Positions 30,776 to 51,794 of a stretch of 64,000 bases of DNA are shown here, in pieces (the stretch's first letter is position 1; each line of letters opens with the position of its first letter). The notes under the pieces were generated by a model. It was given only the letters and a program-made list of their open reading frames with translations. It made no database searches and had not been told where the DNA came from. The stretch is from an uncultured Gammaproteobacteria bacterium (GTDB lineage: Bacteria > Patescibacteriota > Patescibacteriia > 2-01-FULL-39-33): NCBI GenBank assembly GCA_964512625.1, contig CAZEKG010000002.1:109393-173392 (forward strand), given 5' to 3'. The position numbers and the translations under genes were made by a program.

Positions 30776-30796
30776 TTTCTATATTTTAGAACATAA

Positions 30797-30835
30797 AAGA
30801 ACAGCAACTGAAATCGGTTGCTGTTCTTTATTTAA
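30797..30835 (+). terminator. Rho-independent terminator after fusA
   Basis: The hairpin is AAGAACAGCAAC-TGAAATCG-GTTGCTGTTCTT, followed by a T-rich run. Confidence 0.6.
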
Positions 30836-30838
30836 ATT

Positions 30839-30866
30839 AAAAAGGCGGCAACTTGTAGTTGCCGCC
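30839..30866 (-). terminator. Rho-independent terminator (minus strand) for the convergent porin-like gene.
   Basis: The hairpin GGCGGCAACT-TGT-AGTTGCCGCC is followed, on the minus strand, by TTTTT (the complement of the A-run at 30839-30843). Confidence 0.55.
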
Positions 30867-30887
30867 CGTACTCAGTCCCGTTCTTCT

Positions 30888-31916
30888 TTAGAATTTGAAC
30901 TGAGCTTTTGCTAAAAGCCGGTTGTCCTCCGGCCCATCAACTACGGTCTCGTAGTCGAGGGTAAGGGAGCACCGGTCTTTTTTATCCATAAGACGGACGC
31001 CGTTGGTCCAGTAGACGCGCTTGGCGTCGCTAGTTTGGATTTCAACGGTTTCCGTCTTGAACTGACCGCTCTCTCGGTCGAACTTCGTGTTAGTCTCCTC
31101 ATAGGTCTTGGAGATGTCCCCAAGGTAGTCTACCTGGGAGTGAAGCTCGAGCCAAGGAGTGGCCCGGTAGGCGACCTGGACATAGCCGCCGAACTGGTCG
31201 CTAACTTCGATGCTCTCGTATCTTGTATAGCAGAGAGCGCCCATTAAGTTCCAGTGATTGTCTGGCTGCCACGCAGTGCTCACGCCGAAGCGTTGGAAAT
31301 CTTGGCAGAGCTGCGTGTAGCCGGCGATGTTTCCTGATCCTGGTTTGCCCTTTTCCCCAAATTGCTGCCTCAGCATGGCAGACAATTCAATCCTGTCGAA
31401 GGAGTGATCGTCGTCGAAGGCCAGACCGGAACGACCCGTTACATCGAAAACCAGGCTGACGCTTTCCGATAGCTGTCCCTCGACTTGCGCGCCGTAGGCA
31501 TAGCAGGGGAAGGTCATACTACTCGGATAAGCGACAGTTCTTAAGCTGTAAGCGTCAGGAGTGCTGTTGCCTGCAGCCAGGAATATTCTCCCCGCTTTCA
31601 GGCTCCAGTTATCATTTACCTTATACTTCACCCAGACTTCTCGAAGCCAATTAGAGTCGATTTGTCCGTCGTTGAACGGCAGATTGACTTGGGTGGAGGC
31701 CTCCCATCGCTCACTGCTCCAATCAGCTTTCAATCGGAGATTGTTCCATTGGAACTCGTCCGATGAAGTGGTGGTTTCCGCGTAGCTGGCTTGAGTCCAG
31801 CCACTTATTTTCAAAGTCGGTTCCTGACCGACCTTAACATCTTGCAGTTCGGCCGGCGCCGAGTGGGTGAAGCCGAAAAAGGTGGCGAGGACGATGGTGA
31901 CAAAAAACTTCTTCAT
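30888..31916 (-). CDS. Secreted beta-barrel outer-membrane-protein-like (porin-like) protein. Its GC content is markedly higher than the surrounding genome.
   Basis: It has a signal peptide (MKKFFVTIVLATFFGFTHSAPA) and alternating amphipathic beta-strand patterns (WSLKAGRIFLAAG, YVQVAYRATPWLELHS, SLTLDYETVV). The C-terminus is aromatic (KAQFKF), which is typical of OMP barrels. GC is roughly 50-55% against a high-30s background. Confidence 0.45.
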   Translation of the reverse strand: MKKFFVTIVLATFFGFTHSAPAELQDVKVGQEPTLKISGWTQASYAETTTSSDEFQWNNLRLKADWSSERWEASTQVNLPFNDGQIDSNWLREVWVKYKVNDNWSLKAGRIFLAAGNSTPDAYSLRTVAYPSSMTFPCYAYGAQVEGQLSESVSLVFDVTGRSGLAFDDDHSFDRIELSAMLRQQFGEKGKPGSGNIAGYTQLCQDFQRFGVSTAWQPDNHWNLMGALCYTRYESIEVSDQFGGYVQVAYRATPWLELHSQVDYLGDISKTYEETNTKFDRESGQFKTETVEIQTSDAKRVYWTNGVRLMDKKDRCSLTLDYETVVDGPEDNRLLAKAQFKF

Positions 31917-33160
31917 GAGAAACTCCTTTTCTGCTTTTGGCAGTCAAGGAAAGGCTTCTTCACAAGAAGTTTTAGTTCCTCGACTGCCGGCGGACCTCTT
32001 GGACTCGCATTTTTGAACCAACGCAGTTCAGATGGAATCCAAAATCTCTCTTCAAAAACCACTCTTACGAACCTCCAGTCCGGTTGAACCGAATGTTCGA
32101 ATTCGATGACGGGGTGGTCGCTGCCGACCGATCCTTTCTTTGTATTTCCGTCGTCATCTTTTTTGTCAACTGAAACTAAAGTCGTAACCACAGCGGCATT
32201 CGACTTCAGTATTACCAGTAGTCTAGCGATACTTGGTGTCAGGCTAATTAGCGAAATAGTGAAACAAATCAGCGCGGGTCTAGTAACCCGTCCGCCAGAT
32301 TGCCTAACTCTTTCCATGGCCTGATCGAACCTGACTAGAGGTTCTTCGGCTTGGAGCCAAAGAGCGGCTTCCTCTTCAGAGGTAAGCCAGAAGTTGCCAC
32401 TTCTCTTCTTTATATACTGACTTCTCAGCTTATAGTACCTTTTATTTTTGGCACCTTTTTCACTGATGGTTAGTATGCCTATGGGCCCGAAGAGGCTGGC
32501 GAGTATCAATCTAGACCAGCCTAGAAGGAACTCCTCTCGAACTTTTTCACCCTTAAACCTCTTGTTTAGAAGTAGGATGAAGATGCTTGGCGCTGTCATG
32601 AGCATGTACCATTTCAGCAACCAAAGAAAAAAGTTGAGCAGATCTTTCGATGATAGAGATATCTGCTCCCCATTTTCCTTTAGTACTTGGTCTTGGGCCT
32701 CTATGATACTGCTATTGAATCGCATTCCTGCTTCCTGTCGACGAGCGGCTTCATCGGTAGAATAAAGTTGCTTATAGTACTTTGGCGCCTCTTCGGCAAC
32801 TTTCCAGTTCCTAACGAAACATTCTCTAGCGAGATCGATAACTACTCGATCACTTGACTTTCCTGTTAGTATGACTGGAAGATTTTGCTTTAGAATAACC
32901 AAGCGATATTGAATGCGTTGCGCCTCTAGCGGTGTTAGAGTATTTGCCTCAGATTTTTTCTGGGCTTCCAGTAGTAGGGAGTTCATTTGTTCCTGCGCAG
33001 CTAGGCATTCTTGGCTACTGCAAAAAGATTTCTCTTTTTGCCATTTTTGACTTACCCAACTCCAGTCTGCGAAGACTAGAATAGTAACCACTATCGCCAC
33101 CCAACTCAGAATTACCTGAGCGAGAGGCTTTGGCTGGTCATAACTTTGGTAGTATGACAT
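31913..33160 (-). CDS. Hypothetical multi-pass membrane protein. It is GC-rich and overlaps the porin-like gene by 4 nt, so the two are co-transcribed.
   Basis: An N-terminal TM helix (VILSWVAIVVTILVF) and internal TM helices are present, with no recognisable catalytic motif. It is upstream in a 2-gene minus-strand operon and has elevated GC. Confidence 0.4.
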   Translation of the reverse strand: MSYYQSYDQPKPLAQVILSWVAIVVTILVFADWSWVSQKWQKEKSFCSSQECLAAQEQMNSLLLEAQKKSEANTLTPLEAQRIQYRLVILKQNLPVILTGKSSDRVVIDLARECFVRNWKVAEEAPKYYKQLYSTDEAARRQEAGMRFNSSIIEAQDQVLKENGEQISLSSKDLLNFFLWLLKWYMLMTAPSIFILLLNKRFKGEKVREEFLLGWSRLILASLFGPIGILTISEKGAKNKRYYKLRSQYIKKRSGNFWLTSEEEAALWLQAEEPLVRFDQAMERVRQSGGRVTRPALICFTISLISLTPSIARLLVILKSNAAVVTTLVSVDKKDDDGNTKKGSVGSDHPVIEFEHSVQPDWRFVRVVFEERFWIPSELRWFKNASPRGPPAVEELKLLVKKPFLDCQKQKRSFS

Positions 33161-33341
33161 AACTCGCCTCTCTTTCTGAGTTGTTAAAGTTCAGTTTAGT
33201 ATCCTAGGAAATTCCCAAGATAACCTCATATTTTAGCAGATTGTTGGTTACTTGTCAAGTTACCTATTCTTTTTGTGATATATATTTGCCATAATCCATT
33301 TTTTATTATAAAATAACCTAAAATCGCTAACATTTAATTTT

Positions 33342-33716
33342 ATGTTTACCGGAATAGGTAAGATAACCAATTTAATTAAAAAAACAGGAGATAAGGCGAT
33401 AATTGTTGATGCTAATGGAGAACCGACTTACGTAATAATGACCGTTTTTGACTACGAAAGATTGGTTTTGGGGCATTCAGAGGTAAGGGGCTTGACAGAA
33501 GAAGAACTTTTAGATAAAATAAACCGTGACATTGCAATTTGGAAAGGCAGTCAGGAATTGGAAAATTTACCCATTGATCAATACGATTTCTCTAAAAACT
33601 TCGATTTTGGAAGTCAGTATGGTAAATTTAGCCAAGATAAGCCAAATTATGGCTACGAACCGGAAGTGGTAGATGACGAAGAAAGTGAAAGATTCTACTT
33701 TGAAACCGTCGAATAA
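33342..33716 (+). CDS. Hypothetical small acidic protein. The N-terminal ~45 aa resemble a Phd/YefM-type antitoxin fold.
   Basis: The segment KAIIVDANGEPTYVIMTVFDYERLV resembles the YefM/Phd core (xPVIITxNGxPxAVLMSxEDYExL). The C-terminal half is acidic (YEPEVVDDEESERFYFE). No partner toxin lies nearby. Confidence 0.3.
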   Translation: MFTGIGKITNLIKKTGDKAIIVDANGEPTYVIMTVFDYERLVLGHSEVRGLTEEELLDKINRDIAIWKGSQELENLPIDQYDFSKNFDFGSQYGKFSQDKPNYGYEPEVVDDEESERFYFETVE

Positions 33717-33734
33717 CTGTTGATAACTTGACTC

Positions 33735-33762
33735 TTGCCAAAATCGTAATTTGTGATACAAT
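33735..33762 (+). promoter_or_regulatory. Putative promoter upstream of tuf
   Basis: The -35 element is TTGCCA. After a 16-nt spacer, an extended -10 element TGATACAAT follows. The leader to the tuf ATG is ~175 nt. Confidence 0.35.
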
Positions 33763-33941
33763 AATCAAGCGTATTTTATAATAAAACATTAATAAAACTA
33801 ATAAACTAGCGGACCTGGCTAAAACTCCTGCAACCGCCGAAACCTTAGTAAAGGCGACTCTCTAACTTAAAAGTCCTGAGAATCGCATCTTCACTAGTGT
33901 TGCGGCTAAGCAAGGGGGTCCCTATAACAAGGATAAATAAA

Positions 33942-35129
33942 ATGGCAGAACAATTTGACAGAAGCAAGCCGCATCTAAATGTCGGCACCATCGGTCACGT
34001 AGATCACGGAAAAACCACTTTAACCGCTGCTATCCTTCAGGTTCTTGGCGCTAGAGGCGGTAAGGCCCAAAACAAGTCAGTCGATCAGATCGACGCTGCT
34101 CCGGAAGAAAAAGAGAGAGGTATCACTATTGCTACCGCTCACGTCGAATATGAGACTGAAAAGAGACATTATGCTCACGTTGACTGTCCTGGTCACGCTG
34201 ACTACATTAAAAACATGATTACTGGTGCTGCTCAAATGGATGGCGCCATTATCGTTGTTGCTGCTACTGATGGTCCTATGCCTCAAACCAGAGAACACAT
34301 TCTCTTGGCTAGACAAGTAGGTGTACCATACATCGTTGTCTTTATTAACAAAGTTGATCAAGTTGATGATCCTTCACTTATCGATCTAGTTGAAGAAGAA
34401 GTCAAAGATCTTTTGAAGAAATATGAATTCCCTGGAGACACAACCCCTATTATCAGAGGTTCTGCCTTAAAAGCTTTGGAAAATCCAACTGGTCCTGAGG
34501 GTGATTGTATTATACAGCTTATGGATGCTTTGGACACATATATTCCTGAACCTCAACGCGCTACCGATTTGCCTTTCATGATGCCGATTGAAGATGTTTT
34601 CTCCATTGAAGGCCGAGGTACAGTAGTTACTGGAAGAATTGAAAGAGGTATTATTAAATTGAGCGAAGAAGTTGAAATCGTCGGACTTAAGCCGACTATG
34701 AAATCAGTTGTTACTGGTATCGAAATGTTTAACAAGAATCTTAACGAAGGTATTTGCGGTGATAACGCTGGTATCCTTTTAAGAGGTATCAAGAAAGAAG
34801 ATGTTGAAAGAGGCCAAGTTCTTGCTAAACCGGGAACAATCACTCCTCACAGCGAGTTTGAAGCCGAGGTTTACATCTTATCTAAGGAAGAAGGCGGAAG
34901 ACACAAACCTTTCTTTAAGGGTTATAAGCCACAATTCTACATTAGAACTACCGATGTAACTGGTGAAATTGAATTGCCAGAAGGCGTCCAGATGGTTACT
35001 CCTGGAGATACAGTAACCTTGACTATTAAACTTGGTAAGAGCGTAGCTATGGAAGATAAGATGAAATTCTCTATTAGAGAAGGCGGACATACGGTTGGAG
35101 CTGGTGTAGTTACTAAGATTATTAAATAA
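33942..35129 (+). CDS. tuf: Elongation factor Tu
   Basis: It begins [27 protein letters not shown] and carries DCPGHADY and NKVD. It is very highly conserved. The ORF-track start at 33897 is an in-frame upstream extension. Confidence 0.9.
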
Positions 35130-35140
35130 GTTTGTTGCCC

Positions 35141-35173
35141 TTTTGGAGACTGGCACGAGGCCAGTCTCCAAAA
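35141..35173 (+). promoter_or_regulatory. Perfect 14-bp stem-loop between tuf and rpsJ with no following T-run. It may be a processing or attenuation element.
   Basis: TTTTGGAGACTGGC-ACGAG-GCCAGTCTCCAAAA forms 14 consecutive Watson-Crick pairs. Confidence 0.4.
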
Positions 35174-35201
35174 GTCGGGCAAGTACATTAACTATAAAAC
35201 A

Positions 35202-35543
35202 ATGGCAAGCAAAATCACATCTGAAACTCAGGAAAAGGCTCATCAGAGAATCAGAATCAAAATCAAGGCTTATGATCACAAGATTATAGATAATTCTGCT
35301 AAGAAGATCATTGAGACTTGTAAGAGATTCGGTGCTCAGGTTATTGGTCCAGTGCCACTTCCGACTGAAAAGAGGAAGTACACCATCAATAGATCCACTT
35401 TCGTCCACAAGGATGCTCGCGACCAGTTCGAAATGAGAATCCATAAAAGACTATTGGATATTATTGACCCGGACGCTAAGACTGTTGATGCGTTAATGAA
35501 TTTGAATTTGCCGGCAGGCGTGAATGTAGAAATTAAAATGTAA
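35202..35543 (+). CDS. rpsJ: 30S ribosomal protein S10
   Basis: The conserved segments are [61 protein letters not shown]. Confidence 0.9.
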
Positions 35544-35679
35544 GAATTTCAATCTCGAAAGATATTGGAGAAAGATCCCAGGAAATCAGATAGGATATTA
35601 TCGGGGAAAACCTCCAAAGTCGATTGCAGATTGCAAGGAGTAAAAACTCACTATAGTAAAAACAACTTAATTGCTGTCC

Positions 35680-35750
35680 GACCCTATTTATTATTAGGGT
35701 CTTGGCTTGCACTAAGTCTGATTTTTCTGTGAGAGTCAGATTTTTTTTAT
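35680..35750 (+). promoter_or_regulatory. Two hairpins in the unusually long (225-nt) rpsJ-rplC spacer; the second is followed by T8. Possible attenuator or terminator.
   Basis: GACCCTA-TTTATTAT-TAGGGTC lies at 35680-35701. A weaker stem, TCTGA...TCAGA, is followed by TTTTTTTT at 35741-35748. Confidence 0.3.
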
Positions 35751-35768
35751 TACGGTTTATATAAAAAG

Positions 35769-36533
35769 ATGAAATTCATATTAGGTAAAAAAATTGAGAT
35801 GTCCCAAGTGTTCCGAGATGATGGCAACGTTATTCCGGTTACTATTGTTAAAGCTAGTAGAAACATTGTGACTCAAATAAAGAATAAAGAACAGGACGGC
35901 TACTTTGCTATTCAGGTTGGTTTTGATGCGGTTAAAAAAGTCAATAAATCAAAAGCCGGCCATTTAAAAGATTTAAGCTCAATAAGAACTATTAGAGAAT
36001 TCAGAGTTGATGAGAAAGAAGCCGCTAACTTTGAAAGAGGCGGAGAGATTGCCGTTGATGCTTTTGCTGTCGGCGATAAGGTTAGGGTTACTGGTTTTTC
36101 TAAAGGCAAAGGTTTTCAGGGTGTAGTTAAGAGGCATGGTTTCCATGGTTCTCCCAAGACTCATGGTCATAAAGATCAAGAAAGAATGCCTGGTTCTATT
36201 GGAGCCACTGATCCTGGAAGAGTTTTTAAGGGTATTAGAATGGGCGGCCATACAGGAGATGCTAAGATTACGGTTACCAATTTAGAAGTTATTGATATTG
36301 ATTTGGAAAAAGATTTGATTTATATTAAGGGCGCTTTGCCGGGAGCTAGAAACAGCTTGGTTTATATTTATGGTCCAGGCGAGATGGTTGCTAAGAAAGC
36401 TCAACCTGTTAAGGTTGAGGAAAAAGAAGTCGTCGAAGAAGTTGTTGCGTCCGAGTCATCTGAAGAGATTAAGGCCGAAGAAGCTTTAGAAGATGTAAAA
36501 AAAGAAGTAGAAACTAAGAATGTAGAACAATAA
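35769..36533 (+). CDS. rplC: 50S ribosomal protein L3 with a ~45-aa acidic C-terminal extension
   Basis: The L3 core is present (FQVGFDAVKK, GKGFQGVVKRHGF, GGHTGDAKITV). The C-terminus runs EEKEVVEEVVASESSEEIKAEEALEDVKKEVE. Confidence 0.9.
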   Translation: MKFILGKKIEMSQVFRDDGNVIPVTIVKASRNIVTQIKNKEQDGYFAIQVGFDAVKKVNKSKAGHLKDLSSIRTIREFRVDEKEAANFERGGEIAVDAFAVGDKVRVTGFSKGKGFQGVVKRHGFHGSPKTHGHKDQERMPGSIGATDPGRVFKGIRMGGHTGDAKITVTNLEVIDIDLEKDLIYIKGALPGARNSLVYIYGPGEMVAKKAQPVKVEEKEVVEEVVASESSEEIKAEEALEDVKKEVETKNVEQ

Positions 36534-36541
36534 ACATAGTT

Positions 36542-37219
36542 ATGAAATTACCAGTCTACAATATAACAGGAGTTAAAACTAAAGAAGTCGAAGTCAGTTC
36601 TCGTATTTTTGGTGTTAAAGTAAAGCCGGAAGTCGTTCATCAAGTTGTCGTAGCTCAAATGGCTAACGCTAGAAAAGTCTTGGCTGATACCCTTAATAAG
36701 AGTGAGGTTAGAGGCGGAGGCAAGAAGCCTTGGAAACAAAAAGGCACAGGAAAGGCTAGACACGGTTCAAGTAGATCTCCAATTTGGGTTGGCGGTGGCG
36801 TCACTTTCGGTCCGACCAATGATAGGAATTTTTCTAAGAAAGTTAATAAGAAGCAAAAGCAATTAGCTTTGGCGATGTGCTTGTCTGATAAATTAGCTAA
36901 TGAAAGCTTAGCCGTTTTTGAAAAATTATCAGTTGAGGGCGGTAAGACTAAGAATCTTAACGCTTTGATTAAAACAGTTAAGGAAAAAGTTTCCGGCATG
37001 GAGGCAGGTAAGAAATTCTTGCTTATCATTGATAATAACGATAAAGAGCTTATCAGGTCAGGCTTGAATTTAAGGAATATCAATACTATTTCTTATGATA
37101 GTTTAAACTGCATAGAAGTGTTAAAATATGATAAGGTTTTAGCTAGCGAAGAAGCTATTTCAAAAATAGCTAAGCATTATCGAAGGAATACTTCTTCTAA
37201 ATTAGTTACTGAGAAATAA
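36542..37219 (+). CDS. rplD: 50S ribosomal protein L4
   Basis: The L4 motifs are EVRGGGKKPWKQKGTGKARHGSSRSPIWVGGGVTFGP. Confidence 0.85.
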   Translation: MKLPVYNITGVKTKEVEVSSRIFGVKVKPEVVHQVVVAQMANARKVLADTLNKSEVRGGGKKPWKQKGTGKARHGSSRSPIWVGGGVTFGPTNDRNFSKKVNKKQKQLALAMCLSDKLANESLAVFEKLSVEGGKTKNLNALIKTVKEKVSGMEAGKKFLLIIDNNDKELIRSGLNLRNINTISYDSLNCIEVLKYDKVLASEEAISKIAKHYRRNTSSKLVTEK

Positions 37220-37223
37220 AGAT

Positions 37224-37655
37224 ATGGGAATTTTCAATAAAACAAAAAATAGCGATTCTGAAGATATCGAAGCTGTAAAAGCTGAAAAGGAAGTTGTTGC
37301 TGATGTTGCAGTTAAGAAAACGGCTAAAAAAGAAGTTAAGCCGGTAGATGATATGGCGCCTAGCAAGAAAAGAGCTATTTACGGCATCCTGATTAAGCCT
37401 TTGATTACCGAAAAAACTACCTTATTGGCTTCAAGCAATCAATTCGTTTTCGCTGTAAATATGAAAGCTAATAAATTGCAAGTCGCGCAAGCAGTAGAAA
37501 GCCGTTATGGAATCAAGCCTTTGGGAGTTAATATCTTAAAGAATAAAGGCAATGTTGTAAGGTTCGGCAAGAATTGGGGAAGAACCAAGGATTGGAAAAA
37601 AGCAATTGTTACTTTGCCTAAAGGCAAGTCGATCGCGATTCAAGAAGGAATATAA
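37224..37655 (+). CDS. rplW: 50S ribosomal protein L23 with a ~45-aa N-terminal Lys/Glu-rich extension
   Basis: The L23 core is ILIKPLITEKTT ... FAVNMKANKLQVAQAVESRYGIKPLGVNIL, preceded by a charged extension. Confidence 0.85.
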   Translation: MGIFNKTKNSDSEDIEAVKAEKEVVADVAVKKTAKKEVKPVDDMAPSKKRAIYGILIKPLITEKTTLLASSNQFVFAVNMKANKLQVAQAVESRYGIKPLGVNILKNKGNVVRFGKNWGRTKDWKKAIVTLPKGKSIAIQEGI

Positions 37656-37733
37656 TAAAGAAAATACGGATGATATATAGCCTGTGAAAAAAAATAAAAA
37701 TCATGGCTATAAACTATAAGCAATAAAAAAGAT

Positions 37734-43945: not shown

Positions 43946-43965
43946 TTATTAGTCCAGTTAATATT

Positions 43966-44547: not shown

Positions 44548-44580
44548 TAATAGTATCCGTTAATTAAATATTGATCATAT

Positions 44581-45018: not shown

Positions 45019-45092
45019 AGAAACAATAACCAAGAAACAATAATCAATAAGTTTTGGTTTTTGCAAATTGGTTTTTGGAAATTATTTAAAAT

Positions 45093-46367
45093 ATGCTCAA
45101 TAAACTTACTCAAATTTGGAAGATAAAAGATTTGCGCAATAGCATTCTTTTCGTCTTCGCGATGTTGGTTATTTTTAGATTAGTAGCCCATATCCCTATT
45201 CCGGGAATCGACGCTACGGCTTTAAGAAGGCTTTTCGAGAACAATCAGCTTCTTGGCTTAATGAATATCTTCTCCGGCGGCAGCATGCAGAATTTTTCCG
45301 TTATCATGCTTAATGTAGCTCCTTATATCACAGCTTCCATTATTTTCCAGCTATTGACTATGGTAGTTCCTAAGTTGGAAGCTCTTTCTAAAGAGGGCGA
45401 ATATGGTCGAGGCCAAATCAATAAGTGGACTCGTTGGTTGACAGTTCCTTTAGCCGCTTTGCAGGCTTATGGTATGATTGCTATTTTAAGGCAGTCTTCC
45501 GGCGGAGTAATTTTAAGTTTTACTCTTTGGCAGATGTTTTTAAGCATCGTTACGATTACTGCCGGTACGATATTTATGATGTGGATCGGAGAGCTTATTA
45601 CGGAAAAAAGAATCGGTAACGGCATTTCTTTAATTATCTTTGCCGGTATCGTCTCCGGTTTACCAGGTTCAGTCGCCAAGACTTTATCGACCTATTCTCA
45701 GGCGGATATTATCAATATGGTTATTTTCGCGGTTATCGCTCTAATAACTATCGTTTCTGTTGTTGTTATAACTGAAGGTCAAAGAAATGTTCCAGTTACT
45801 TACGCAAGAAGAGTAAGGGGTAATAAAACTCTTGGCGGTAGTTCAACTCATTTGCCGATTAGAGTTAATCAGGCGGGTGTTATTCCGATCATCTTCGCTG
45901 TTTCCATTATCCTATTTCCGCCGATGATTGCTCAGTTTTTTTTAAGGGTAAAGACGGAATGGATCGTTTCCGGCGCTCAGTGGATTATTCAATTATTCCA
46001 AAACCAGTTATTTTACGGAATCTCTTATTTTGTTATGGTTGTGGCTTTTACTTATTTCTATACGGCAGTCATTTTCCATCCCGACCAAATTTCCGAAAAT
46101 CTTCAAAAGCAAGGCGGTTTTGTTCCGGGTATTAGACCAGGAAAGAATACGGCTCATTATCTTCAGAAAATCGTTACCAGGATAGTTTTTACTGGCGCTC
46201 TATTCCTTGGTATTATCGCTGTCTTACCTTTAATTACCGCTCAAATAACCAGTACTCAAAGCTTGGTAATCGGCGGTACTAGTTTATTGATTGTCGTTTC
46301 AGTAGTTATTGAAACCGTTAACCAAATAAACGCCCAGCTATCCATGAGGGATTACGAAGAAATCTAG
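45093..46367 (+). CDS. secY: Preprotein translocase subunit SecY
   Basis: It has ten TM helices and the motifs GIDATALRRLF and LMNIFSGGSMQNFSVIMLNVAPYITASIIFQLL. It sits after rplO. Confidence 0.9.
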   Translation: MLNKLTQIWKIKDLRNSILFVFAMLVIFRLVAHIPIPGIDATALRRLFENNQLLGLMNIFSGGSMQNFSVIMLNVAPYITASIIFQLLTMVVPKLEALSKEGEYGRGQINKWTRWLTVPLAALQAYGMIAILRQSSGGVILSFTLWQMFLSIVTITAGTIFMMWIGELITEKRIGNGISLIIFAGIVSGLPGSVAKTLSTYSQADIINMVIFAVIALITIVSVVVITEGQRNVPVTYARRVRGNKTLGGSSTHLPIRVNQAGVIPIIFAVSIILFPPMIAQFFLRVKTEWIVSGAQWIIQLFQNQLFYGISYFVMVVAFTYFYTAVIFHPDQISENLQKQGGFVPGIRPGKNTAHYLQKIVTRIVFTGALFLGIIAVLPLITAQITSTQSLVIGGTSLLIVVSVVIETVNQINAQLSMRDYEEI

Positions 46368-46395
46368 GTTAATTTCCAATTTCTAAAAAAAGATA

Positions 46396-46428
46396 AAAAT
46401 ACCTTAATCCGTCGAGGTATTTTTATTG
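46396..46428 (+). terminator. Possible terminator after secY (hairpin plus T-run)
   Basis: The hairpin AAATACCT-TAATCCGTCG-AGGTATTT has a large loop and is followed by TTATTGTT. Confidence 0.35.
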
Positions 46429-46482
46429 TTATATTATATTTAATGTTGTAAGATGAGAGCATTAAAATTATTTTTTACAAAT

Positions 46483-46538
46483 AAAAAGCCCCGCACGATT
46501 TATTGGGTTATTGGGCTTTACCAATAAATCGTGCGGGG
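46483..46538 (-). terminator. Strong rho-independent terminator (minus strand) for the 129-aa gene
   Basis: An 18-bp perfect inverted repeat, CCCCGCACGATTTATTGG / CCAATAAATCGTGCGGGG, is followed on the minus strand by TTTTT. Confidence 0.6.
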
Positions 46539-46549
46539 TGAGAGCATCT

Positions 46550-46939
46550 CTAGGAGATTATTATCCTCGGCCTCTCTGGGCCAAGGTCGGCGACGTGGTT
46601 GATAAATTTGCCAATTTTCTCTTCCTCAATGCCTGACTGTCGGAGCAGCTCCTCGATAGTTGTTTTGTCCGCCGGTGCCGACGGCAAGGAGTAGTGCTCA
46701 GGTGTTAATCCTTTGTACCCCTTAAGACTCCCGCCATGCCTTGGCCAGAACACCGTTTTGACTTCTCCGCTTGCCAGTAGAGAACTGACGAACGCGTTTA
46801 TCGCCTCCTGATGTTCGGGGTACATACAGCAAGGACAAATTTCACTCAGCTCTCCTCTAAAAAGAGATGCAAGCATCGCGACATTACCTTGTTGAAGGAT
46901 GACGAATGTGTGTTCACCATGTCGAGTTATCTCTTTCAC
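46550..46939 (-). CDS. Hypothetical small (129 aa) Cys-containing protein with a CPCC motif. It is GC-rich relative to the genome and transcribed divergently from the radical SAM gene.
   Basis: The sequence is MKEITRHGEHTFVILQQGNVAMLASLFRGELSEICPCCMYPEHQEA... . It has no signal peptide or TM helix, and GC is about 50%. It shares a 205-nt AT-rich divergent promoter region with the 47145 gene. Confidence 0.4.
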   Translation of the reverse strand: MKEITRHGEHTFVILQQGNVAMLASLFRGELSEICPCCMYPEHQEAINAFVSSLLASGEVKTVFWPRHGGSLKGYKGLTPEHYSLPSAPADKTTIEELLRQSGIEEEKIGKFINHVADLGPERPRIIIS

Positions 46940-47144
46940 TGGAGTTCTCCTCTTTTTTATTAGTTGGCATGTTAGTATGTCAACATTTCAGTATATTATA
47001 ATAAGAAAATTTTGTCAAGTGCTTATGCACGGACTAATATTATATATTTATTTAAAATTAGCTAAAATTTATTCAATAAACTTGTAGTAGTTATGTATTT
47101 TTGATAAAATAGTCATGTATTGAAATATTAATCTTAAAAAAAAT

Positions 47145-48227
47145 ATGAAGCCCAACAATCTTGAAAGTGTCAGAATATTAAGTGTAGAGCAAGAAGAACG
47201 AGAAGCAAATTATTTGATTGATTATCTTTATGGCTTGTATCCTGAGCAGGATGGTGTTTTTACTAATGAACAATATCAAAATGCTCATCAGGCTATCATG
47301 GATTCTTTTTTATATACTGATGCGAAAGTATATTTGACTCGCCAATGTAATGGCGAGTGCCCATTCTGTCTGACTGATATGCGTCCAACAACAAGGGAGG
47401 TTGAGGATCAGGAATTCCTTGAGAAGTTTAAATCTAATATTGATGAATATTATAATAAACTAGGCCGAAAGATTTTGTTTACTGGAGGTGAACCTACTAT
47501 CAACCCCAAGAGATTATTGGGTTGCTTGGAGGTGCTAAAGGATTATGATATGGATTTGGTTGTCTTATACACAAACGGCACAAAATTATCAGAAGAGATA
47601 GAATATAAAGGAGTTAGTAAGCCATTACTGGATCATTTAAGGGATTGCGGTCTGAGGAATATTAATCTTTCCGTTCATGATTATGACGCAGAAAGAAGAA
47701 CGGAGCTTTCTCATGAAATTGGCAAAATGGATACGGAAGCGCTCATTAAAGATATTATTGAATCTGGAATTAATTTAAGGTTGAATTGTACATTAATGAA
47801 GGACTTTATTGGTGATAAGGAAGCAATAGTAAAGTATATTGAATGGGCAAATAAGAATGGCGTAAGAGATATATATTTTAGAGATTTGTTTGAATTTGTT
47901 AAGAGAGATAAAAGCACATTAAGGCAAACACCCAGCAGCATGCAAAAATTAAAATTTACTGACGACCAAAGGATTGATTTTTGGAAGTTGATTGAAAGTA
48001 TGGACGAAGAAGATGGTTTTAAGCTTGAGCAACAAATGTTTAGACATAAAGATTGGGGTAGTACTTTTGTATTTACTTATACACCGACTAAATCTCAAGT
48101 TTCTTTTGGCCATTTAAATATAGGAGGAGAGAATGCCGAAGAGGATACTTATTACGCAATTCATCCAGATGGGATAAGAACTAGAAATATGAACGTGGCA
48201 GAAAATACTGTTGAGGAGAGTGAATAG
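47145..48227 (+). CDS. Radical SAM enzyme with a single 4Fe-4S cluster, of the viperin/MoaA-like subclass. It has a ~65-aa N-terminal extension and no C-terminal auxiliary Cys cluster.
   Basis: The sequence LTRQCNGECPFC (CxxxCxxC) resembles viperin FTRQCNYKCGFC and MoaA TDRCNLRCTYC. The motifs ILFTGGEPT, LYTNGTKL and INLSVHDYDAERR follow the TIM-barrel core pattern of that subfamily. After residue ~206 there are no further Cys residues, which rules out a MoaA-type second cluster or a SPASM domain. Confidence 0.6.
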   Translation: MKPNNLESVRILSVEQEEREANYLIDYLYGLYPEQDGVFTNEQYQNAHQAIMDSFLYTDAKVYLTRQCNGECPFCLTDMRPTTREVEDQEFLEKFKSNIDEYYNKLGRKILFTGGEPTINPKRLLGCLEVLKDYDMDLVVLYTNGTKLSEEIEYKGVSKPLLDHLRDCGLRNINLSVHDYDAERRTELSHEIGKMDTEALIKDIIESGINLRLNCTLMKDFIGDKEAIVKYIEWANKNGVRDIYFRDLFEFVKRDKSTLRQTPSSMQKLKFTDDQRIDFWKLIESMDEEDGFKLEQQMFRHKDWGSTFVFTYTPTKSQVSFGHLNIGGENAEEDTYYAIHPDGIRTRNMNVAENTVEESE

Positions 48228-48336
48228 TAAAATTAAGCATATTAATCCAATGAATTACCAATCTACTGGCAGGTAGATTACCAAGTCTCAGTTGGAATGA
48301 TGATAGTAATAAATTAATAATTGATAAAAATAAAAT

Positions 48337-49014
48337 ATGTTTAAAAACGAAAAGCCGTTCGAAATTATCCTTCTTGGTCCGCCAGTTTCCGGTAAGGGAA
48401 CGCAAGCCGATTTAGTGGCGGCAACTTTTGACGTGCCTCATATTTCTACTGGTCAAATCCTTCACGCTATAAAAACTGACGCTGAAAATCCTTTAGCAGC
48501 GGAAGTCGCTTCTTATATCGATTTTGGGAAGCTAGTGCCTTCTGAATTGGTTAATAAGTTAGTCGTAGATAGGATAAAAAAAGAGGATTGTAAAGCTGGT
48601 TATGTGCTTGACGGCTATCCTAGGACTCTTGCCCAGGCCGAGTTTATCAATCAAAACGCTGATGTGGATTATGTTTTTATCATTGACGTTAAGGATGAAG
48701 TCATTATCGAGCGTATGGCGGGTCGCCGGGTTTGCAAGAATGGCCATGCTTGGCATTTAAAATATTCTCCGAGTAAGGTAGAGGGTATTTGTGATACTTG
48801 CGGCGAAGCTTTATTTCAGCGGGATGATGATAAGGAAGAGACAGTTAAGAATCGTTTGGATATTTATCATACAGAAACTGATCCGATTATTAATTTTTTT
48901 GAAGCTAAGGGCTGCTTGATTAGGATTGACGGTGAACAGCATATCGAGGGTGTTTATCAGCAAATCGTAAGAAGGATGGTTAGTGATTTAAGAAAGCAGA
49001 TAGGTTGGAAATAA
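48337..49014 (+). CDS. adk: Adenylate kinase with a variant (Cys-His / Cys-Cys) LID motif
   Basis: It has the P-loop ILLGPPVSGKGTQA. The LID is RRVCKNGHAWH ... CDTCG. The C-terminus is standard. Confidence 0.9.
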   Translation: MFKNEKPFEIILLGPPVSGKGTQADLVAATFDVPHISTGQILHAIKTDAENPLAAEVASYIDFGKLVPSELVNKLVVDRIKKEDCKAGYVLDGYPRTLAQAEFINQNADVDYVFIIDVKDEVIIERMAGRRVCKNGHAWHLKYSPSKVEGICDTCGEALFQRDDDKEETVKNRLDIYHTETDPIINFFEAKGCLIRIDGEQHIEGVYQQIVRRMVSDLRKQIGWK

Positions 49015-49019
49015 GCAAC

Positions 49020-49787
49020 ATGATAAAAACAAAAACTCCTGAAGAAATAAAGATCATGAAAGAGGGCGGAAAAGTCTTAGCCGCTATTTTAGGGATGGTC
49101 GACGAAAAAGTAAAGCCGGGAGTTAGTACTTTTGAGCTCAATGAGTATGCTGAACAGTTGATTAAAAAATATAAAGGCGAAGCGAGCTTTAAGGGTTATA
49201 AAGCGGCTTGGTCGGAACATGTTTATCCGGCGGCTTTATGTGTTTCAGTCAATAATGAAGTTGTCCATGGTATTCCTGATGACAATCGATATTTGAAATC
49301 AGGCGACATAGTCGGCCTTGATTGCGGTTTGAAATATAAAGGCCTTTTTACTGATATGGCGATAACGATTCCGGTTGGCAAGGTTAGTCGCGAGGCTCAG
49401 AAGCTGATAAACGTAACTCGCGAATCGCTTATGACCGGCTTAAAACAGGTTAAGCCCGGCAATAAGATTAGTGATATTTCAAAAGCGGTAGCTAAAGCGG
49501 TTGAAAAACAGGGTTTCTCTGTTGTTCGTCAATTAGTCGGTCATGGTGTCGGTTATTCGGCTCATGAAGATCCTCAAATTCCTAATTATTTTGATCCTTA
49601 TTTCCCTGATCCGATTCTTAAAGTCGGAATGACTTTGGCGATTGAGCCAATGGTCAACCTTGGCGGTTGGGAGGTTGATACGCTCGATGATGGCTGGACG
49701 ATTGTTACTGCCGACGGCTCGCTCTCGGCGCATTTTGAGCATACTGTTGCAGTTACAGAGAAAGGTTGTGAGATTTTAACTAAATAA
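49020..49787 (+). CDS. map: Methionine aminopeptidase type I
   Basis: It begins MIKTKTPEEIKIMKEGGKVLAAIL and carries the metal ligands in the VHGIPDD, GLDCG and HGVGYSAHE regions. Confidence 0.85.
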   Translation: MIKTKTPEEIKIMKEGGKVLAAILGMVDEKVKPGVSTFELNEYAEQLIKKYKGEASFKGYKAAWSEHVYPAALCVSVNNEVVHGIPDDNRYLKSGDIVGLDCGLKYKGLFTDMAITIPVGKVSREAQKLINVTRESLMTGLKQVKPGNKISDISKAVAKAVEKQGFSVVRQLVGHGVGYSAHEDPQIPNYFDPYFPDPILKVGMTLAIEPMVNLGGWEVDTLDDGWTIVTADGSLSAHFEHTVAVTEKGCEILTK

Positions 49788-49791
49788 GCTT

Positions 49792-50064
49792 ATGACTACT
49801 GTGGAAGAATTACAATCTCAAATTAATGAGATAAAAAATAGAAATAAGAAAGTTGAATCTGATAAAGCATGGGAAACGAGTGTTTTTAGGAAAGTTATCA
49901 TTTCAGTTTTTACATATATTGTAATTGTATTATTTTTTTTCTTTGCAGGATTAGCAAATCCTTTTGTTAATGCTATTGTGCCAGCATTAGCTTTTTTAAT
50001 CTCAACACTTTCAATTCCCTTATTTAAAAAATGGTGGATAGAAAATGTGTATAAAGCAAAATAA
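49792..50064 (+). CDS. Hypothetical small two-TM membrane protein. It is very AT-rich and occupies the position where infA normally follows map.
   Basis: It has the TM helices VIISVFTYIVIVLFFFFAGL and IVPALAFLISTLSIPLF. A-ending codons dominate, and GC is roughly 28%. Confidence 0.35.
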   Translation: MTTVEELQSQINEIKNRNKKVESDKAWETSVFRKVIISVFTYIVIVLFFFFAGLANPFVNAIVPALAFLISTLSIPLFKKWWIENVYKAK

Positions 50065-50067
50065 TTT

Positions 50068-50451
50068 ATGAAATTTTTAGGAATAGATTACGGCGAGTCG
50101 AAAATCGGGTTGGCCATTGGCGATACGGAAGCGAAAATCGCTTCGCCTTTTTCGATTTTAAAGAATAAAGGCTGGAATGCTTCGATTAAGTCCATTAAGG
50201 AAATTTGCCTTAAGGAAAAAATCGGTAAGATTATTATCGGAGTCCCGAAAAACCTAAGAGGACCAAGCCAGGAACAAGCCGAAAAAACTAAGAAATTTAT
50301 AGCCTATTTTAGAGAAAATATTGAAATGCCGGTTGAGGAAGAGGACGAGCAATTTACTACTGCTCAGGCGCGCAAGCTTTCGACTAAAGGCGATGATGAT
50401 GATTTGGCTGCCATGTTGATTCTTCAGGGTTACTTAGATAAGCAAGTTTAA
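50068..50451 (+). CDS. ruvX: YqgF/RuvX-family Holliday junction resolvase-like nuclease (putative pre-16S rRNA nuclease)
   Basis: The N-terminal RNase H-fold motif is MKFLGIDYGESKIGLAIGD, and the internal motif IIIGVPKNLRG is present. Confidence 0.8.
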   Translation: MKFLGIDYGESKIGLAIGDTEAKIASPFSILKNKGWNASIKSIKEICLKEKIGKIIIGVPKNLRGPSQEQAEKTKKFIAYFRENIEMPVEEEDEQFTTAQARKLSTKGDDDDLAAMLILQGYLDKQV

Positions 50452-50452
50452 A

Positions 50453-51019
50453 ATGACTTATTTAACTCAAGGTTTTATCTTAAAAAAACTTCATTTTGGT
50501 GAATACGACCGGCAGTATGTAATCTATACTCGAGACAAAGGGAAAATTACTGCGGTCGCCAAGGGAGTCAAGAAAATAAATTCTAAACTTAATCCTCATT
50601 TAAGCCGTTTTATGATGGTTGATTTTATGTTGGCTGAGGGGGTTATTTTTAATCGGATTGCTTCCGCTTCGATAGCTAAGAGATTTTCTTCATTTGAAAA
50701 AGATTGGGAGAAAAATATTTTAGCCCAGTATTTTCTTGAGGTGGTTGATCTTTTAGTTAAGGGACAATTAACGGATGAGGGTATCTTTAAAATCATGGAT
50801 GAATTTTTTACGGCGCTAGAAAGTTGTAATGAAAAGAAAGAAAAATTGGTTTGCCTTAATATTTTTCTGTATGAGCTATTGAAGTCTTTAGGTTATCAGC
50901 CGAAATTAGACGCTAAAAATCAAAAAGTCCTCTTTTCTTTTTTAAATAGCCAAATAACTGAAACAGCTGAGAGTAAGGTTTACAGCTTCGCCTCAGCTTT
51001 TTCTATATTTGACAATTAG
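50453..51019 (+). CDS. recO: DNA repair protein RecO (short form, OB-fold N-terminus; no zinc finger)
   Basis: It begins MTYLTQGFILKKLHFGEYDRQYVIYTRDKGKITAVAKGVKK, which matches the RecO N-terminal OB domain. It is 188 aa. Confidence 0.6.
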   Translation: MTYLTQGFILKKLHFGEYDRQYVIYTRDKGKITAVAKGVKKINSKLNPHLSRFMMVDFMLAEGVIFNRIASASIAKRFSSFEKDWEKNILAQYFLEVVDLLVKGQLTDEGIFKIMDEFFTALESCNEKKEKLVCLNIFLYELLKSLGYQPKLDAKNQKVLFSFLNSQITETAESKVYSFASAFSIFDN

Positions 51020-51092
51020 CTCATTTTAGGTTATGATGAGCTGTTGTGTTCTTTCAAGGTTAACCGGCTAAAGGCCGAGACAAGGGGGATCT

Positions 51093-51614
51093 ATGACGGT
51101 TTCAGATAGAGCAGCGTTAAGCGTAATTCCCATGAACAGGTCGGCCGTCAAGCGGTTTTTACCTCATCGCAACGCCATGTTGCTTATTGATGAGGCTGAG
51201 ATCTATCCCGGTCAGGAGATTGTCGGGTCAAGGATTGAGGCCCATAAGTTTCTTTCCCCAAGCTCCTTGCATTTCGACGGTCATTTTCCGGGGTTTTCGA
51301 TCTTTCCGGGCATGTTGACGGCCGAAGGCCTGGCGCAAGCCAGCGCCTTGTTATACGCCTATCTAAAAGACGGCGAGTTTGAGGATATGATCGTCGTTTT
51401 GAGTGAGGTAAGGAAGATGAAATTACTTTGCCCTGTTCGTCCTGGTGATACGCTTCATTTTCGGGCCGAGATTATTATGGCTGACGGCCCGAAATGCGCT
51501 TGCAAGGTCCGGGCCTACATTCTTACCTTAAGGAAGGGTGGTAAGTTTCGAGAGATAACCGTCGCCAAGGGCGAGATCGAAGGCATGGCCATTGCCAAAG
51601 AAAAATTGGCCTAA
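51093..51614 (+). CDS. fabZ: FabZ/FabA-like hot-dog-fold 3-hydroxyacyl-ACP dehydratase. It is GC-rich relative to the genome.
   Basis: The motifs are LPHRNAMLLIDEA, HFDGHFPGFSIFPGMLTAEGLAQA (the catalytic His and Glu are in FabZ positions) and PVRPGD. GC is about 50%. Confidence 0.7.
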   Translation: MTVSDRAALSVIPMNRSAVKRFLPHRNAMLLIDEAEIYPGQEIVGSRIEAHKFLSPSSLHFDGHFPGFSIFPGMLTAEGLAQASALLYAYLKDGEFEDMIVVLSEVRKMKLLCPVRPGDTLHFRAEIIMADGPKCACKVRAYILTLRKGGKFREITVAKGEIEGMAIAKEKLA

Positions 51615-51640
51615 CCCCGTTAAAAGCGGGGTTTTTATTT
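51613..51640 (+). terminator. Rho-independent terminator after the FabZ-like gene
   Basis: The hairpin AACCCCG-TTAAAAG-CGGGGTT is followed by TTTATTTTGTTT. Confidence 0.5.
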
Positions 51641-51794
51641 TGTTTAAAAACTTTATCGCTTTTAAAATCGTATTATTATATATAATTAAGCTAAAATAGG
51701 CTCTAGACGGGTTAGGATCAGCTATCTTTTTTAACTTGTCATTTCCACTGTTTTTAGTTATAATTAAGCCAATCGAAATCATATAAAGTAACTT

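Follow-up and report, generated by a model that had tools for sequence, protein, structure and literature searches.

GC-rich accessory units at three core operon boundaries of a Candidatus Buchananbacteria-like chromosome, one of them encoding a predicted porin

The stretch of DNA analysed here (the window) comprises 64,000 nucleotides of the metagenome-assembled contig CAZEKG010000002.1 (assembly GCA_964512625.1, positions 109,393 to 173,392). Its backbone, rpsL-rpsG-fusA / tuf-S10-spc-secY / adk-map-ruvX-recO / aspS, belongs to a Candidatus (Ca.) Buchananbacteria-like chromosome of the Patescibacteria, from a groundwater bacterium with a small genome, and the nearest matches of its SecY (70-80% identity, the top ones at 79-80%) come from metagenome-assembled genomes (MAGs) labelled Candidatus Buchananbacteria or Patescibacteria group. 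Between 27.5 and 56 kb the genes run in the order rpsL-rpsG-fusA, orf124-tuf-rpsJ, the S10 and spc operons to secY, adk-map-orf90-ruvX-recO, and aspS onward. Three boundaries of this array hold small additional groups of genes, here called islets: an operon of orf415, a multi-transmembrane protein, and porin342, a predicted porin, between fusA and orf124-tuf (islet 1); orf129 and a radical SAM gene between secY and adk (islet 2); and a FabZ-like dehydratase gene between recO and aspS (islet 3).

The window has a guanine-plus-cytosine (GC) content of 39.3%, and its genes average 0.393 (sd 0.041) in GC and 0.368 (sd 0.067) in GC at third codon positions (GC3). The codons of each gene were re-drawn from the synonymous usage of the window with the amino-acid sequence held fixed, giving a z value for each gene (Table 1). 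Four genes, spread over three junctions, deviate genuinely and significantly in composition, namely porin342 and orf415 at fusA/tuf, orf129 at secY/adk, and the fabZ-like gene at recO/aspS (z +4.6 to +12.3). Apart from these and the AT-rich orf90, the genes of the window range from z -4.3 to +4.0, with very long genes at the extremes. An earlier reading made from the letters alone (the sequence-only reading) had proposed four inserts of foreign composition in the gaps between core operons. Three GC-rich islets stand, including the FabZ-like gene that it had singled out, but its AT-rich candidate, orf90 at map/ruvX, does not, as set out below.

A sliding-window analysis, suggested by the same reading, agreed with the gene-wise values. 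In 1-kb tetranucleotide windows, 31001-32000 was the top outlier (z 6.6) and 46.5-48.2 kb stood out after GC normalisation; the fabZ-like gene gave no signal because, at 522 bp, it is too small for windows of this size. The GC-rich signal is restricted to coding sequences, the spacers having 21-45% GC. RNA genes were rejected as the source of the high GC: a search of the window and of four relatives with Rfam, at its gathering thresholds, returned only two tRNAs at 60.4-60.7 kb. A common donor of the three islets was also unsupported, codon-usage correlations among porin342, orf129 and the fabZ-like gene being only 0.01-0.24 (short genes). Porin342, orf415 and orf129 are the only credible minus-strand genes in the 64 kb, and all others lie on the plus strand. 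As a separate observation, GC skew is positive nearly throughout 1-64000 and is about zero or below at 31-33, 45.5-47, 12.5-14.5 and 26.5-28 kb. The three islets fall in one 21-kb third of the window, a clustering that is weakly significant by simple arithmetic (about 0.04 if length is counted, and about 0.14 if junctions are).

Each islet is small (0.5-2.6 kb, one or two genes) and is accompanied by its own expression signals (Table 1). In islet 1 (30776-33341) the minus strand reads promoter-like site, orf415, porin342 and GC-rich terminator, and the orf415 stop overlaps the porin342 start by 4 bp (ATGA). In islet 2, orf129 has the Shine-Dalgarno sequence GAGGAG upstream of a GTG start, and the radical SAM gene runs divergent from it. 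The terminator-like hairpin after secY was missed by the terminator scanner because its loop is longer than 8 nt. In islet 3, the fabZ-like ribosome-binding site is AAGGGGGA. The promoter-like sites of orf415, orf129 and the fabZ-like gene are all near-consensus for sigma-70. With a promoter-like site, a ribosome-binding site and a hairpin terminator of its own, each unit could thus be expressed without reading into or disrupting the neighbouring operons. All core genes flanking the islets are intact, as the sequence-only reading had stated; the clean terminators that it described are present after fusA, the porin gene, orf129 and the fabZ-like gene, but orf90 has none.

Table 1. Features of the islets, their flanks and the porin homologues. 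Positions are those of the window unless another locus is named; z is from the codon redraw.
Feature	Positions	Strand	Composition	Remarks
ComEC-type competence channel	23010..24533	+		Pfam Competence E=5.7e-54, plus DUF4131; 7 kb upstream of islet 1
fusA (EF-G)	28640..30775	+		711-aa open reading frame (ORF); 60-73% identical to EF-G in the best 80 metagenome loci; intact left flank of islet 1
fusA hairpin terminator	30796..30829	+		terminator on both strands; 15-pair stem, T-rich tail
porin cassette terminator	30843..30867	-		11-pair GC-rich stem (GGGCGGCAAC...GTTGCCGCC) and TTTTT, 20 nt past the porin stop; converges on the fusA terminator
porin342	30888-31916	-	GC 0.530, GC3 0.647, z +12.3	most GC-rich gene of the window
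orf415	31913-33160	-	GC 0.449, GC3 0.450, z +6.0	
orf415-porin promoter-like site	33230..33258	-		TTGACA-17-TAAAAT, extended TG, 11/12 matches, ~70 nt upstream of orf415
orf124	33342..33716	+	native	within the fusA/tuf gap; conserved resident
tuf (EF-Tu)	33897..35129	+		from ORF and translation; right flank of islet 1
secY	45093..46367	+		protein of 424 aa with 79% identity to the nearest Buchananbacteria MAGs; flanks islet 2 on the left
terminator-like hairpin after secY	46393..46426	+		12-bp arms (AAAAATACCT.../...AGGTATTTTT), seen in the sequence and by self-BLAST
orf129 terminator	46489..46538	-		18-bp perfect inverted repeat, then T-run
orf129	46550-46939	-	GC 0.497, GC3 0.531, z +4.6	
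orf129 promoter-like site	46990..47018	-		TTGACA-17-TATACT, 11/12 matches
radical SAM enzyme	47145..48227	+	GC 0.349	PF04055 E=4.6e-14; CxxxCxxC cluster motif CNGECPFC
adk and map (overlapping)	48337..49787	+		from ORFs; right flank of islet 2; adk/map junction empty here
orf90	49792..50064	+	GC 0.267, GC3 0.165, z -4.4	small membrane protein, AT-rich, with two to three segments that are hydrophobic; conserved resident
ruvX and recO	50068..51019	+		Pfam RuvX, RecO_N, RecO_C; left flank of islet 3
fabZ-like promoter-like site	51009..51037	+		TTGACA-17-TATGAT, 11/12; -35 hexamer inside the final recO codons
fabZ-like gene	51093-51614	+	GC 0.502, GC3 0.580, z +5.7	
fabZ-like terminator	51613..51633	+		AACCCCG-TTAAAAG-CGGGGTT, then TTTATTTT
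aspS promoter-like site	51736-51764	+		from the promoter scan
aspS	51795..53249	+		Pfam tRNA-synt_2 E=1e-115; right flank of islet 3
porin, window	30888-33160	-	GC 0.53, neighbours 0.39	fusA/tuf
porin homologue, L161	L161 10001-11014		GC 0.54, neighbours 0.37	gatC/ligA
porin homologue, L162	L162 6622-9032		GC 0.57, neighbours about 0.42	adjoins TrmB regulator (10093-10845)
porin homologue, L169	L169 8001-9053		GC 0.56, neighbours 0.50	adjoins TrmB regulator (7018-7821)
porin homologue, L171	L171 7001-8074		GC 0.56, neighbours about 0.45	upstream of rpsO-pnp; two genes from a tyrosine recombinase
porin homologue, L174	L174 5713-7990		GC 0.58, neighbours about 0.45	gatC/ligA
porin homologue, L175	L175 7001-8077		GC 0.47, neighbours about 0.40	adjoins TrmB regulator (6057-6815); upstream of amino-acid ABC importer (binding protein, permease, ATPase; 8205-10923)
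porin homologue, P0014				beside secE-nusG-rplKA

The window was compared with 80 genome loci around SecY and the best 80 metagenome loci around EF-G (160 in all), onto which its proteins were mapped. Junctions were counted in 69 Parcubacteria-like loci, and the 18 loci whose SecY is 70-80% identical served as closest relatives. The EF-G loci are mostly from outside the candidate phyla radiation (CPR), and the informative ones are five CPR-like contigs.

Judged by sequence comparison, two of the genes in the gaps, orf90 and orf124, are conserved residents and no inserts. The sequence-only reading had counted orf90 as an insert and had named, as an observation that would speak against this, the same gene at the same position with the same composition in relatives. 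The relative L008 carries at map/ruvX an equally AT-rich orthologue (67% identical; GC 0.27 vs 0.36 for the backbone) in the same tight packing, between map and ruvX genes 70% and 54% identical to those of the window. In the window, orf90 lies 4 bp from map and 3 bp from ruvX with no promoter-like site or terminator of its own, and it shares a 90%-identity cluster with a partner from another sample. Homologues of orf124 (36-60% identity) stand between fusA and tuf in the five CPR-like metagenome contigs, L081-L084 and L099 (for example L081 4326-4736, L083 3702-4190 and L099 10154-10579), with the motif KTGD..I...YV.M...YE.LV...SEVRGLTEEELLDKINRDIAIWK; the N-terminus of orf124 is weakly Phd/YefM antitoxin-like (E about 0.02-0.04). 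Since orf124 is conserved at this place, the insertion proper in fusA/tuf is the orf415-porin operon only, and the insert claimed for this gap narrows to that operon.

The insert claimed at secY/adk also divides in two. Its orf129 is GC-rich, whereas the radical SAM gene is lineage-specific at this site yet native in composition, with a codon-usage correlation to the host of r = 0.70; the sequence-only reading had already held that composition could not separate this gene from the host, and this was borne out. Homologues of the radical SAM protein reach 60% identity, the sole taxon-labelled one is from a Patescibacteria MAG, and the two that were looked up lie at other loci. In NCBIfam and PADLOC the protein falls under all equivalog cutoffs (MoaA, viperin and others) by a wide margin. 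A defence system made up of the radical SAM protein and orf129 was considered and rejected, PADLOC giving partial, generic radical-SAM-core similarity to pVip (E = 1.7e-12) and nothing for orf129.

The junctions themselves differ sharply in what they accommodate. Gaps of more than 600 bp were found at none of the 18 junctions from rplC to secY (45-65 loci each), compared with 13/59 loci at secY/adk, 7/56 at adk/map, 1/51 at map/ruvX and 18/27 at recO/aspS. In the closest relatives the neighbours of the islets are adjacent: secY/adk is empty (16-295 bp) in 15 of 16, and recO/aspS measures 62-138 bp in five of nine. The other four of these nine are occupied at recO/aspS by three unrelated families (L013 and L014 hold one homologous pair), and adk/map is occupied (365-2069 bp) in 9/15, every occupant being a singleton in an all-against-all BLAST. 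The fusA-orf124-tuf segment is compact in the five CPR-like contigs. Across relatives, the contents of secY/adk, adk/map, map/ruvX and recO/aspS are mostly singleton families, and none of the 160 related loci has a counterpart of porin342, orf415, orf129 or the radical SAM gene.

The relatives carry cargo of their own in these places. Their GC-rich ORFs (more than 0.09 over the locus median) lie nearly all in the variable junctions or further downstream, and the one outlier that falls within the ribosomal operon seems to be an artefact of an alternative reading frame. In L004 (12040-14100 and 16093-16584), L016 (12213-12602) and L009 (12141-12455), GC-rich ORFs sit in adk/map or recO/aspS, mostly on the minus strand, with GC of 0.53-0.60 vs 0.41-0.44 for their backbones; L004, for instance, has a block of three ORFs spanning 2 kb, and L016 an ORF of 129 aa. 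None has a homologue among the junction ORFs compared, and none resembles the cargo of the window. More distant Parcubacteria (L024 14555-18098; also L025, L027, L036 and L040) have multi-gene blocks at recO/aspS with GC about 0.10-0.15 over the backbone, and, judged by reading the sequences, these look like pyrimidine-biosynthesis enzymes (PyrK, PyrD, PyrB-like). Judged in the same way, the occupants of map/ruvX include a GIY-YIG-like protein (L007 14003-14296) and a tRNA-binding-domain-like protein (L002 13196-13534).

Recurrent occupation across the 69 loci bears out one half of the proposal that the junctions tolerate or attract insertions. Tolerance is supported; attraction is neither shown nor called for, since insertions in polycistronic ribosomal operons would be lethal or polar, and terminator-bounded tolerance together with purifying selection suffices to account for the placement. 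The cargo-tolerant boundaries are fusA/tuf, secY/adk, adk/map and recO/aspS, and never, in the loci compared, the interior junctions of rplC-secY.

The islets carry no sign of a mobile element. No integrase, transposase, defence, prophage or conjugative family was found among the inserted proteins in Pfam, NCBIfam, PHROGs, PADLOC and the ORF lists. When the left border of each islet was compared with the right one, the longest direct or inverted matches measured 5-10 nt, which is at chance level against shuffles (p = 0.16-0.99), so the search for junction repeats that the sequence-only reading had recommended turned up nothing beyond chance, and its own statement that no integrase, transposase or direct repeat is visible holds. 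A BLAST search with the seven spacers against the window and the 160 loci gave no matches other than the arms of the hairpins themselves and two short, unplaced ones; the flank sequences are otherwise unique. Searches of INPHARED (tblastn and blastn with porin342, orf129, the FabZ-like protein and the whole cassette), of PLSDB (tblastn with porin342 and orf129) and of IMG/VR (three of the proteins) returned nothing relevant.

These results bear on the idea that an unrecognised site-specific or hairpin-targeting system, akin to integrons or to IS200/IS605 elements, places cassettes beside terminators by means of a recombinase encoded elsewhere in the genome. A strong hairpin does abut each islet, the islets are cassettes of one or two genes, and the L171 porin homologue lies two genes from a tyrosine recombinase. 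The hairpins nevertheless differ in sequence, and each has a T-run as ordinary terminators do; there is no shared motif, target-site duplication or above-chance repeat, no repeated flank element, and neither a recombinase nor an Rfam match in 30.7-51.7 kb. We regard such a system as very improbable.

An artefact of assembly or binning, by which GC-rich pieces of other organisms were joined chimerically to the contig, can hardly be credited. The source is indeed a metagenome-assembled contig and the islets are sharply different in composition, but they consist of complete genes with regulatory signals, set between intact core flanks with AT-rich native spacers on both sides. The same porin architecture recurs in independent assemblies of other samples (L161, L162, L171 and L174), and the FabZ-like and orf90 proteins are also present in an independent Logan assembly.

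The account that we favour, with moderate confidence, is that three operon boundaries each carry a lineage-specific accessory unit gained through hotspots of horizontal gene transfer (HGT) that work without mobile elements, in a probably transformable bacterium. For the direction, timing and mechanism of integration we infer the following. The units would be orf415 with the porin gene (fusA to orf124-tuf), orf129 with the radical SAM gene (secY to adk) and the FabZ-like gene (recO to aspS), each acquired by horizontal transfer or recombination in which no site-specific mobile element took part. They probably entered through uptake of DNA, for which a ComEC gene is present 7 kb upstream of islet 1, and subsequent illegitimate or flank-homology-assisted recombination. 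Selection would purge insertions that break polycistronic operons, so that only the gaps bounded by terminators and promoters would be permissive, as neutral landing sites. Experiments in Saccharibacteria have demonstrated natural competence accompanied by homologous recombination (PMC10633639). Core-flanked hotspots that contain no mobile elements have been described in many bacteria and are over-represented in transformable ones (Oliveira, Touchon, Cury & Rocha 2017, PMC5635113). A recent study of aquifer Patescibacteria reports abundant HGT, mostly from CPR to CPR, islands with phylogenetically ambiguous or novel sequences, and an over-representation of translation genes within and near the predicted islands (Gios et al. 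2025, PMC12455944).

The same variability could in principle arise if the units were ancestral and had been deleted in the sampled relatives, the junctions being variable by erosion. Streamlining and a proneness to lose genes are typical of CPR genomes; as orf90 and orf124 illustrate, small junction genes can be ancestral, a distant FabZ-like gene sits at recO/aspS in L010, and the radical SAM protein has homologues in other Patescibacteria. However, long residence should erase a GC3 excess, and synonymous sites of the backbone are saturated at this divergence. In different relatives a given junction mostly houses unrelated families, which would require either many ancestral genes or many gains. 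In contrast to the packed residents, moreover, the units lie on the opposite strand or possess promoters and terminators of their own. Differential loss therefore appears improbable as the general explanation.

The porin cassette of islet 1 was studied as a family. Porin342 matches Pfam Porin_O_P (PF07396) marginally, at 22.6 bits against a gathering cutoff of 20.9 and over residues 82-162 only. An AlphaFold2 (AF2) model built on a 25-sequence alignment (pLDDT 88.9, pTM 0.82) has a signal helix at residues 2-16 and about 18 strands, and in Foldseek its top match was OprP (2o4v; E=7e-11, TM-score 0.66, 12% sequence identity), followed by OmpF, OmpU and OprO. The protein ends in ...AQFKF, with a terminal Phe. 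From this model porin342 is predicted to be a secreted porin-fold beta-barrel. Patescibacteria have been described as monoderm where the envelope was examined (PMC8871954), and a secreted porin-fold family is unexpected in a phylum regarded in this way; a literature search found no paper describing such a family in Patescibacteria.

A word-indexed homology search recovered porin342 itself only, and a full HMMER scan revealed the family, with at least 150 homologues, the best of them 45% identical and from another Buchananbacteria MAG. All three taxon-labelled homologues come from Patescibacteria MAGs (Buchananbacteria, Paceibacterota and "Patescibacteria group"), and all nine contexts inspected lie on contigs labelled Patescibacteria or with CPR-type gene content (Table 1). 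Its partner orf415 has transmembrane segments by hydropathy and no match in Pfam or the PDB, and a profile of three partner proteins also matched nothing in either. In L162 and L174 the gene immediately upstream of the porin homologue is a homologue of orf415 (30% and 31% identity, respectively), which makes this a conserved two-gene module; in P0014 a 424-aa gene, matched by position, takes the place of orf415 upstream of the porin homologue. The TrmB neighbours in three contexts and the amino-acid ABC importer in one hint at a role in nutrient uptake.

Several observations weigh against recent gain as the explanation of the islets. The comparison at fusA/tuf is thin, comprising the five CPR-like contigs only. 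Because the closest relatives are only 79% identical in SecY, loss in relatives is inseparable from gain, and no insertion is datable. A gene that keeps the GC3 of its donor is expected to have a near-identical counterpart in that donor, except where the donor has not been sampled, and no donor was found, the nearest homologues being 45% identical for the porin and 33% for the FabZ-like protein, with none for orf129. The flanking fusA, tuf, secY, adk, recO and aspS genes show no GC3 gradient toward the islets and hence, on this weak test, no recombination footprint. Within the one operon GC3 differs, at 0.45 in orf415 vs 0.65 in porin342. The porin gene exceeds its host in both GC and GC3 in 7/7 contexts with DNA, with GC3 of 0.65-0.71 in six. 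In L161 and L174, which are syntenic (gatA 70% and ligA 64% identical), the porin lies at gatC/ligA in both while the two porins are only 35% identical; this shared site, taken with the seven contexts, is more easily reconciled with a composition that is intrinsic and maintained, or with alleles replaced repeatedly, than with one recent gain.

GC-richness in every context means that "foreign composition" may not signify recent transfer, and it lowers the confidence with which composition dates the insertion. What the sequence-only reading called foreign is aberrant in composition, but the word foreign was an overstatement. Either there were many independent recent gains from unsampled GC-richer donors, or something keeps the family GC-rich, be it selection, biased conversion or the replacement of its alleles out of a pool of GC-rich ones. 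The porin homologues are only 29-45% identical to porin342, so synonymous sites have long been saturated. Ordinary translational selection for C-ending codons was rejected, the frequency of C-ending pyrimidine codons being 0.29 in ribosomal and elongation factor genes vs 0.25 in the background and 0.72 in the porin gene.

One explanation built on these data holds that the GC-rich composition is an intrinsic, maintained property, at least for the porin cassette, of an old Patescibacteria family inherited vertically or exchanged within the phylum, its GC3 kept near 0.65-0.70 by mRNA or codon selection, by GC bias in the conversion of a frequently recombining surface-protein gene, or by cycling through a mobile pool that is GC-rich and hidden. 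The excess over host in all seven backgrounds (0.37-0.50) speaks for it, as do a codon signature common to the porin genes (r = 0.40-0.56 among them) and independent of their hosts (r = -0.09 in the window, -0.50 in L161), the divergent L161 and L174 porins at one site, the Patescibacteria origin of all three labelled homologues, and the lack of an intermediate, partly ameliorated copy among the contexts seen. To our knowledge, however, no mechanism holds a single gene 15-20 GC points over its genome. Translational selection of the ordinary kind fails as given above, and the cassette occupies at least six loci among the nine contexts and is thus mobile. The sample consists of seven genes with DNA; orf129 is not covered by such an explanation, and the L010 homologue of the FabZ-like protein has backbone GC. 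For the islets as a whole we consider it unlikely, and gain at permissive boundaries remains the account that we prefer.

A related and tentative proposal, which we rate as doubtful at present, concerns the fusA/tuf islet alone: it may be one copy of a Patescibacteria-wide module of a multi-transmembrane protein and an OprP-like barrel, whose codons are held at about 53-58% GC (GC3 about 0.65-0.70) at host GC of 37-50%. If so, the foreign composition of the module would be a heritable property of the family and no clock for recent transfer, kept up by selection specific to the gene, by conversion biased towards GC in a surface gene that hyper-recombines, or by a hidden mobile pool of high GC. 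Supposedly monoderm, host-dependent cells would then make a secreted porin, which may act in an unrecognised outer layer or insert into the outer membrane of the host to tap nutrients.

The cargo of the other two islets is less conspicuous. Orf129 matched nothing in the Pfam, NCBIfam, PADLOC, PHROG, phage, plasmid or IMG/VR collections, and its single-sequence AF2 model is unreliable (pLDDT 60). The FabZ-like protein is a hot-dog dehydratase (PF07977, 52.3 bits against a cutoff of 23) that falls under the NCBIfam FabZ equivalog cutoffs (74.8 vs 113; 70.9 vs 155). Its HFPG...PG...E..AQ motif aligns to solved FabZ structures, with GHFPGFSIFPGMLTAEGLAQ matching the active-site motif of 6ihc. Its nearest homologue, P0012 (33% identical), lies on a 69%-GC contig that also encodes an outer-membrane efflux protein, and the FabZ-like gene at the same recO/aspS junction in L010 is 27% identical.

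Elsewhere in the window, the tuf ORF as called opens at a GTG 15 codons before the conserved MAEQFDR... start (33897-33941); the GTG-start form is not in the protein collection, and the real start is probably the ATG at 33942. Two giant proteins of 937 aa (116-2929, plus strand) and 3385 aa (2947-13104, plus strand) begin with an N-terminal T4SS-pilin domain (TrbC/VirB2-like) followed by Big_5, TSP3, DUF4215 and VWA; the 3' part of the 3385-aa gene (10.2-13 kb) is a tetranucleotide outlier, for which internal repeats are the assumed cause. A PIF1/RecD-like helicase with a C-terminal HTH_40 (61816-63468, plus strand) has z +4.0, the highest outside the islets.

The sequence-only reading had presented the segment as an unusual reservoir of accessory functions. 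The kind of phenomenon, accessory genes at a few permissive core intervals without mobile elements, is already known (PMC5635113; PMC12455944), and "unusual" overstates the case; the present instance lies in a streamlined, uncultivated phylum and inside the most conserved bacterial gene array. Knowledge of the tolerant boundaries could be of use in the annotation of CPR MAGs, as a source of neutral insertion sites for Patescibacteria genetics, and in the discovery of lineage-specific functions. The porin cassette is the more consequential lead, as a barrel porin family that is GC-rich across hosts in bacteria thought to have no outer membrane. It bears on the exchange of material between epibiotic CPR cells and their hosts, and on the reading of compositional anomaly as recent HGT.

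Set against known systems, the islets differ from classical genomic islands in that they have no integrase or direct repeats, measure 0.5-2.6 kb (vs at least 10 kb), and lie away from tRNAs, which occur in the window at 60.4-60.7 kb only. They differ from insertion sequences (IS), transposons and miniature inverted-repeat transposable elements (MITEs) in the absence of significant border repeats and in flanks that are single-copy in the window and the fetched loci. As regards integrons, the hairpins are perfect stems with T-runs and no common sequence, and no tyrosine recombinase was found in 30.7-51.7 kb, a comparison made with no dedicated attC model. Phage morons, as reportedly described by Hendrix and colleagues, are single genes of odd composition with their own promoter and terminator, placed between genes that are adjacent in relatives. 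The islets share with them the form of autonomous extra genes of deviant composition between such neighbours; unlike morons, they lie in a cellular chromosome between housekeeping operons, with no phage genes near and no match in the phage collections.

At the level of single proteins, porin342 shares with the OprO/OprP porins (PF07396; PDB 2o4v, 4rjw) a signal peptide, a model of about 18 barrel strands, a C-terminal Phe, a marginal Pfam match and OprP as its top fold match. It differs from them in its 12% identity, in its occurrence in a phylum regarded as monoderm and in its pairing with a multi-transmembrane protein, so that the likeness is one of fold. The FabZ-like protein resembles FabZ/ApeI-like dehydratases in fold, in its FabA-like Pfam domain and in its catalytic His/Glu motif; it differs in scoring below the equivalog cutoff, in an N-terminal extension and in a nearest relative at 33%, and its gene is adjoined by recO and aspS, without fatty-acid-synthesis neighbours.

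The study of aquifer Patescibacteria concerns the same phylum and habitat type, with within-phylum HGT and islands of novel sequence; in the parts of it available to us, neither placement at operon junctions nor a porin cassette is described (PMC12455944). Closest in kind are the hotspots without mobile elements. Those were defined by within-species pan-genomes, whereas here the relatives stand at genus-to-class distance only, no conspecific genome having been found, and the islets are very small, lie inside the str / S10-spc / adk-map array and show no recombination signal in their flanks, as judged by GC3 gradient only. In the window and its relatives, the core flanks are adjacent in relatives, the occupants are unrelated (fusA/tuf aside, where close relatives are few), and integrase, transposase, prophage and conjugative genes are absent. 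With the hotspots, which have been linked to natural transformation, the window shares accessory genes in a few core-bounded intervals, fast turnover of content and the lack of an integrase, prophage or conjugative element, and it too carries a ComEC gene (PMC5635113).

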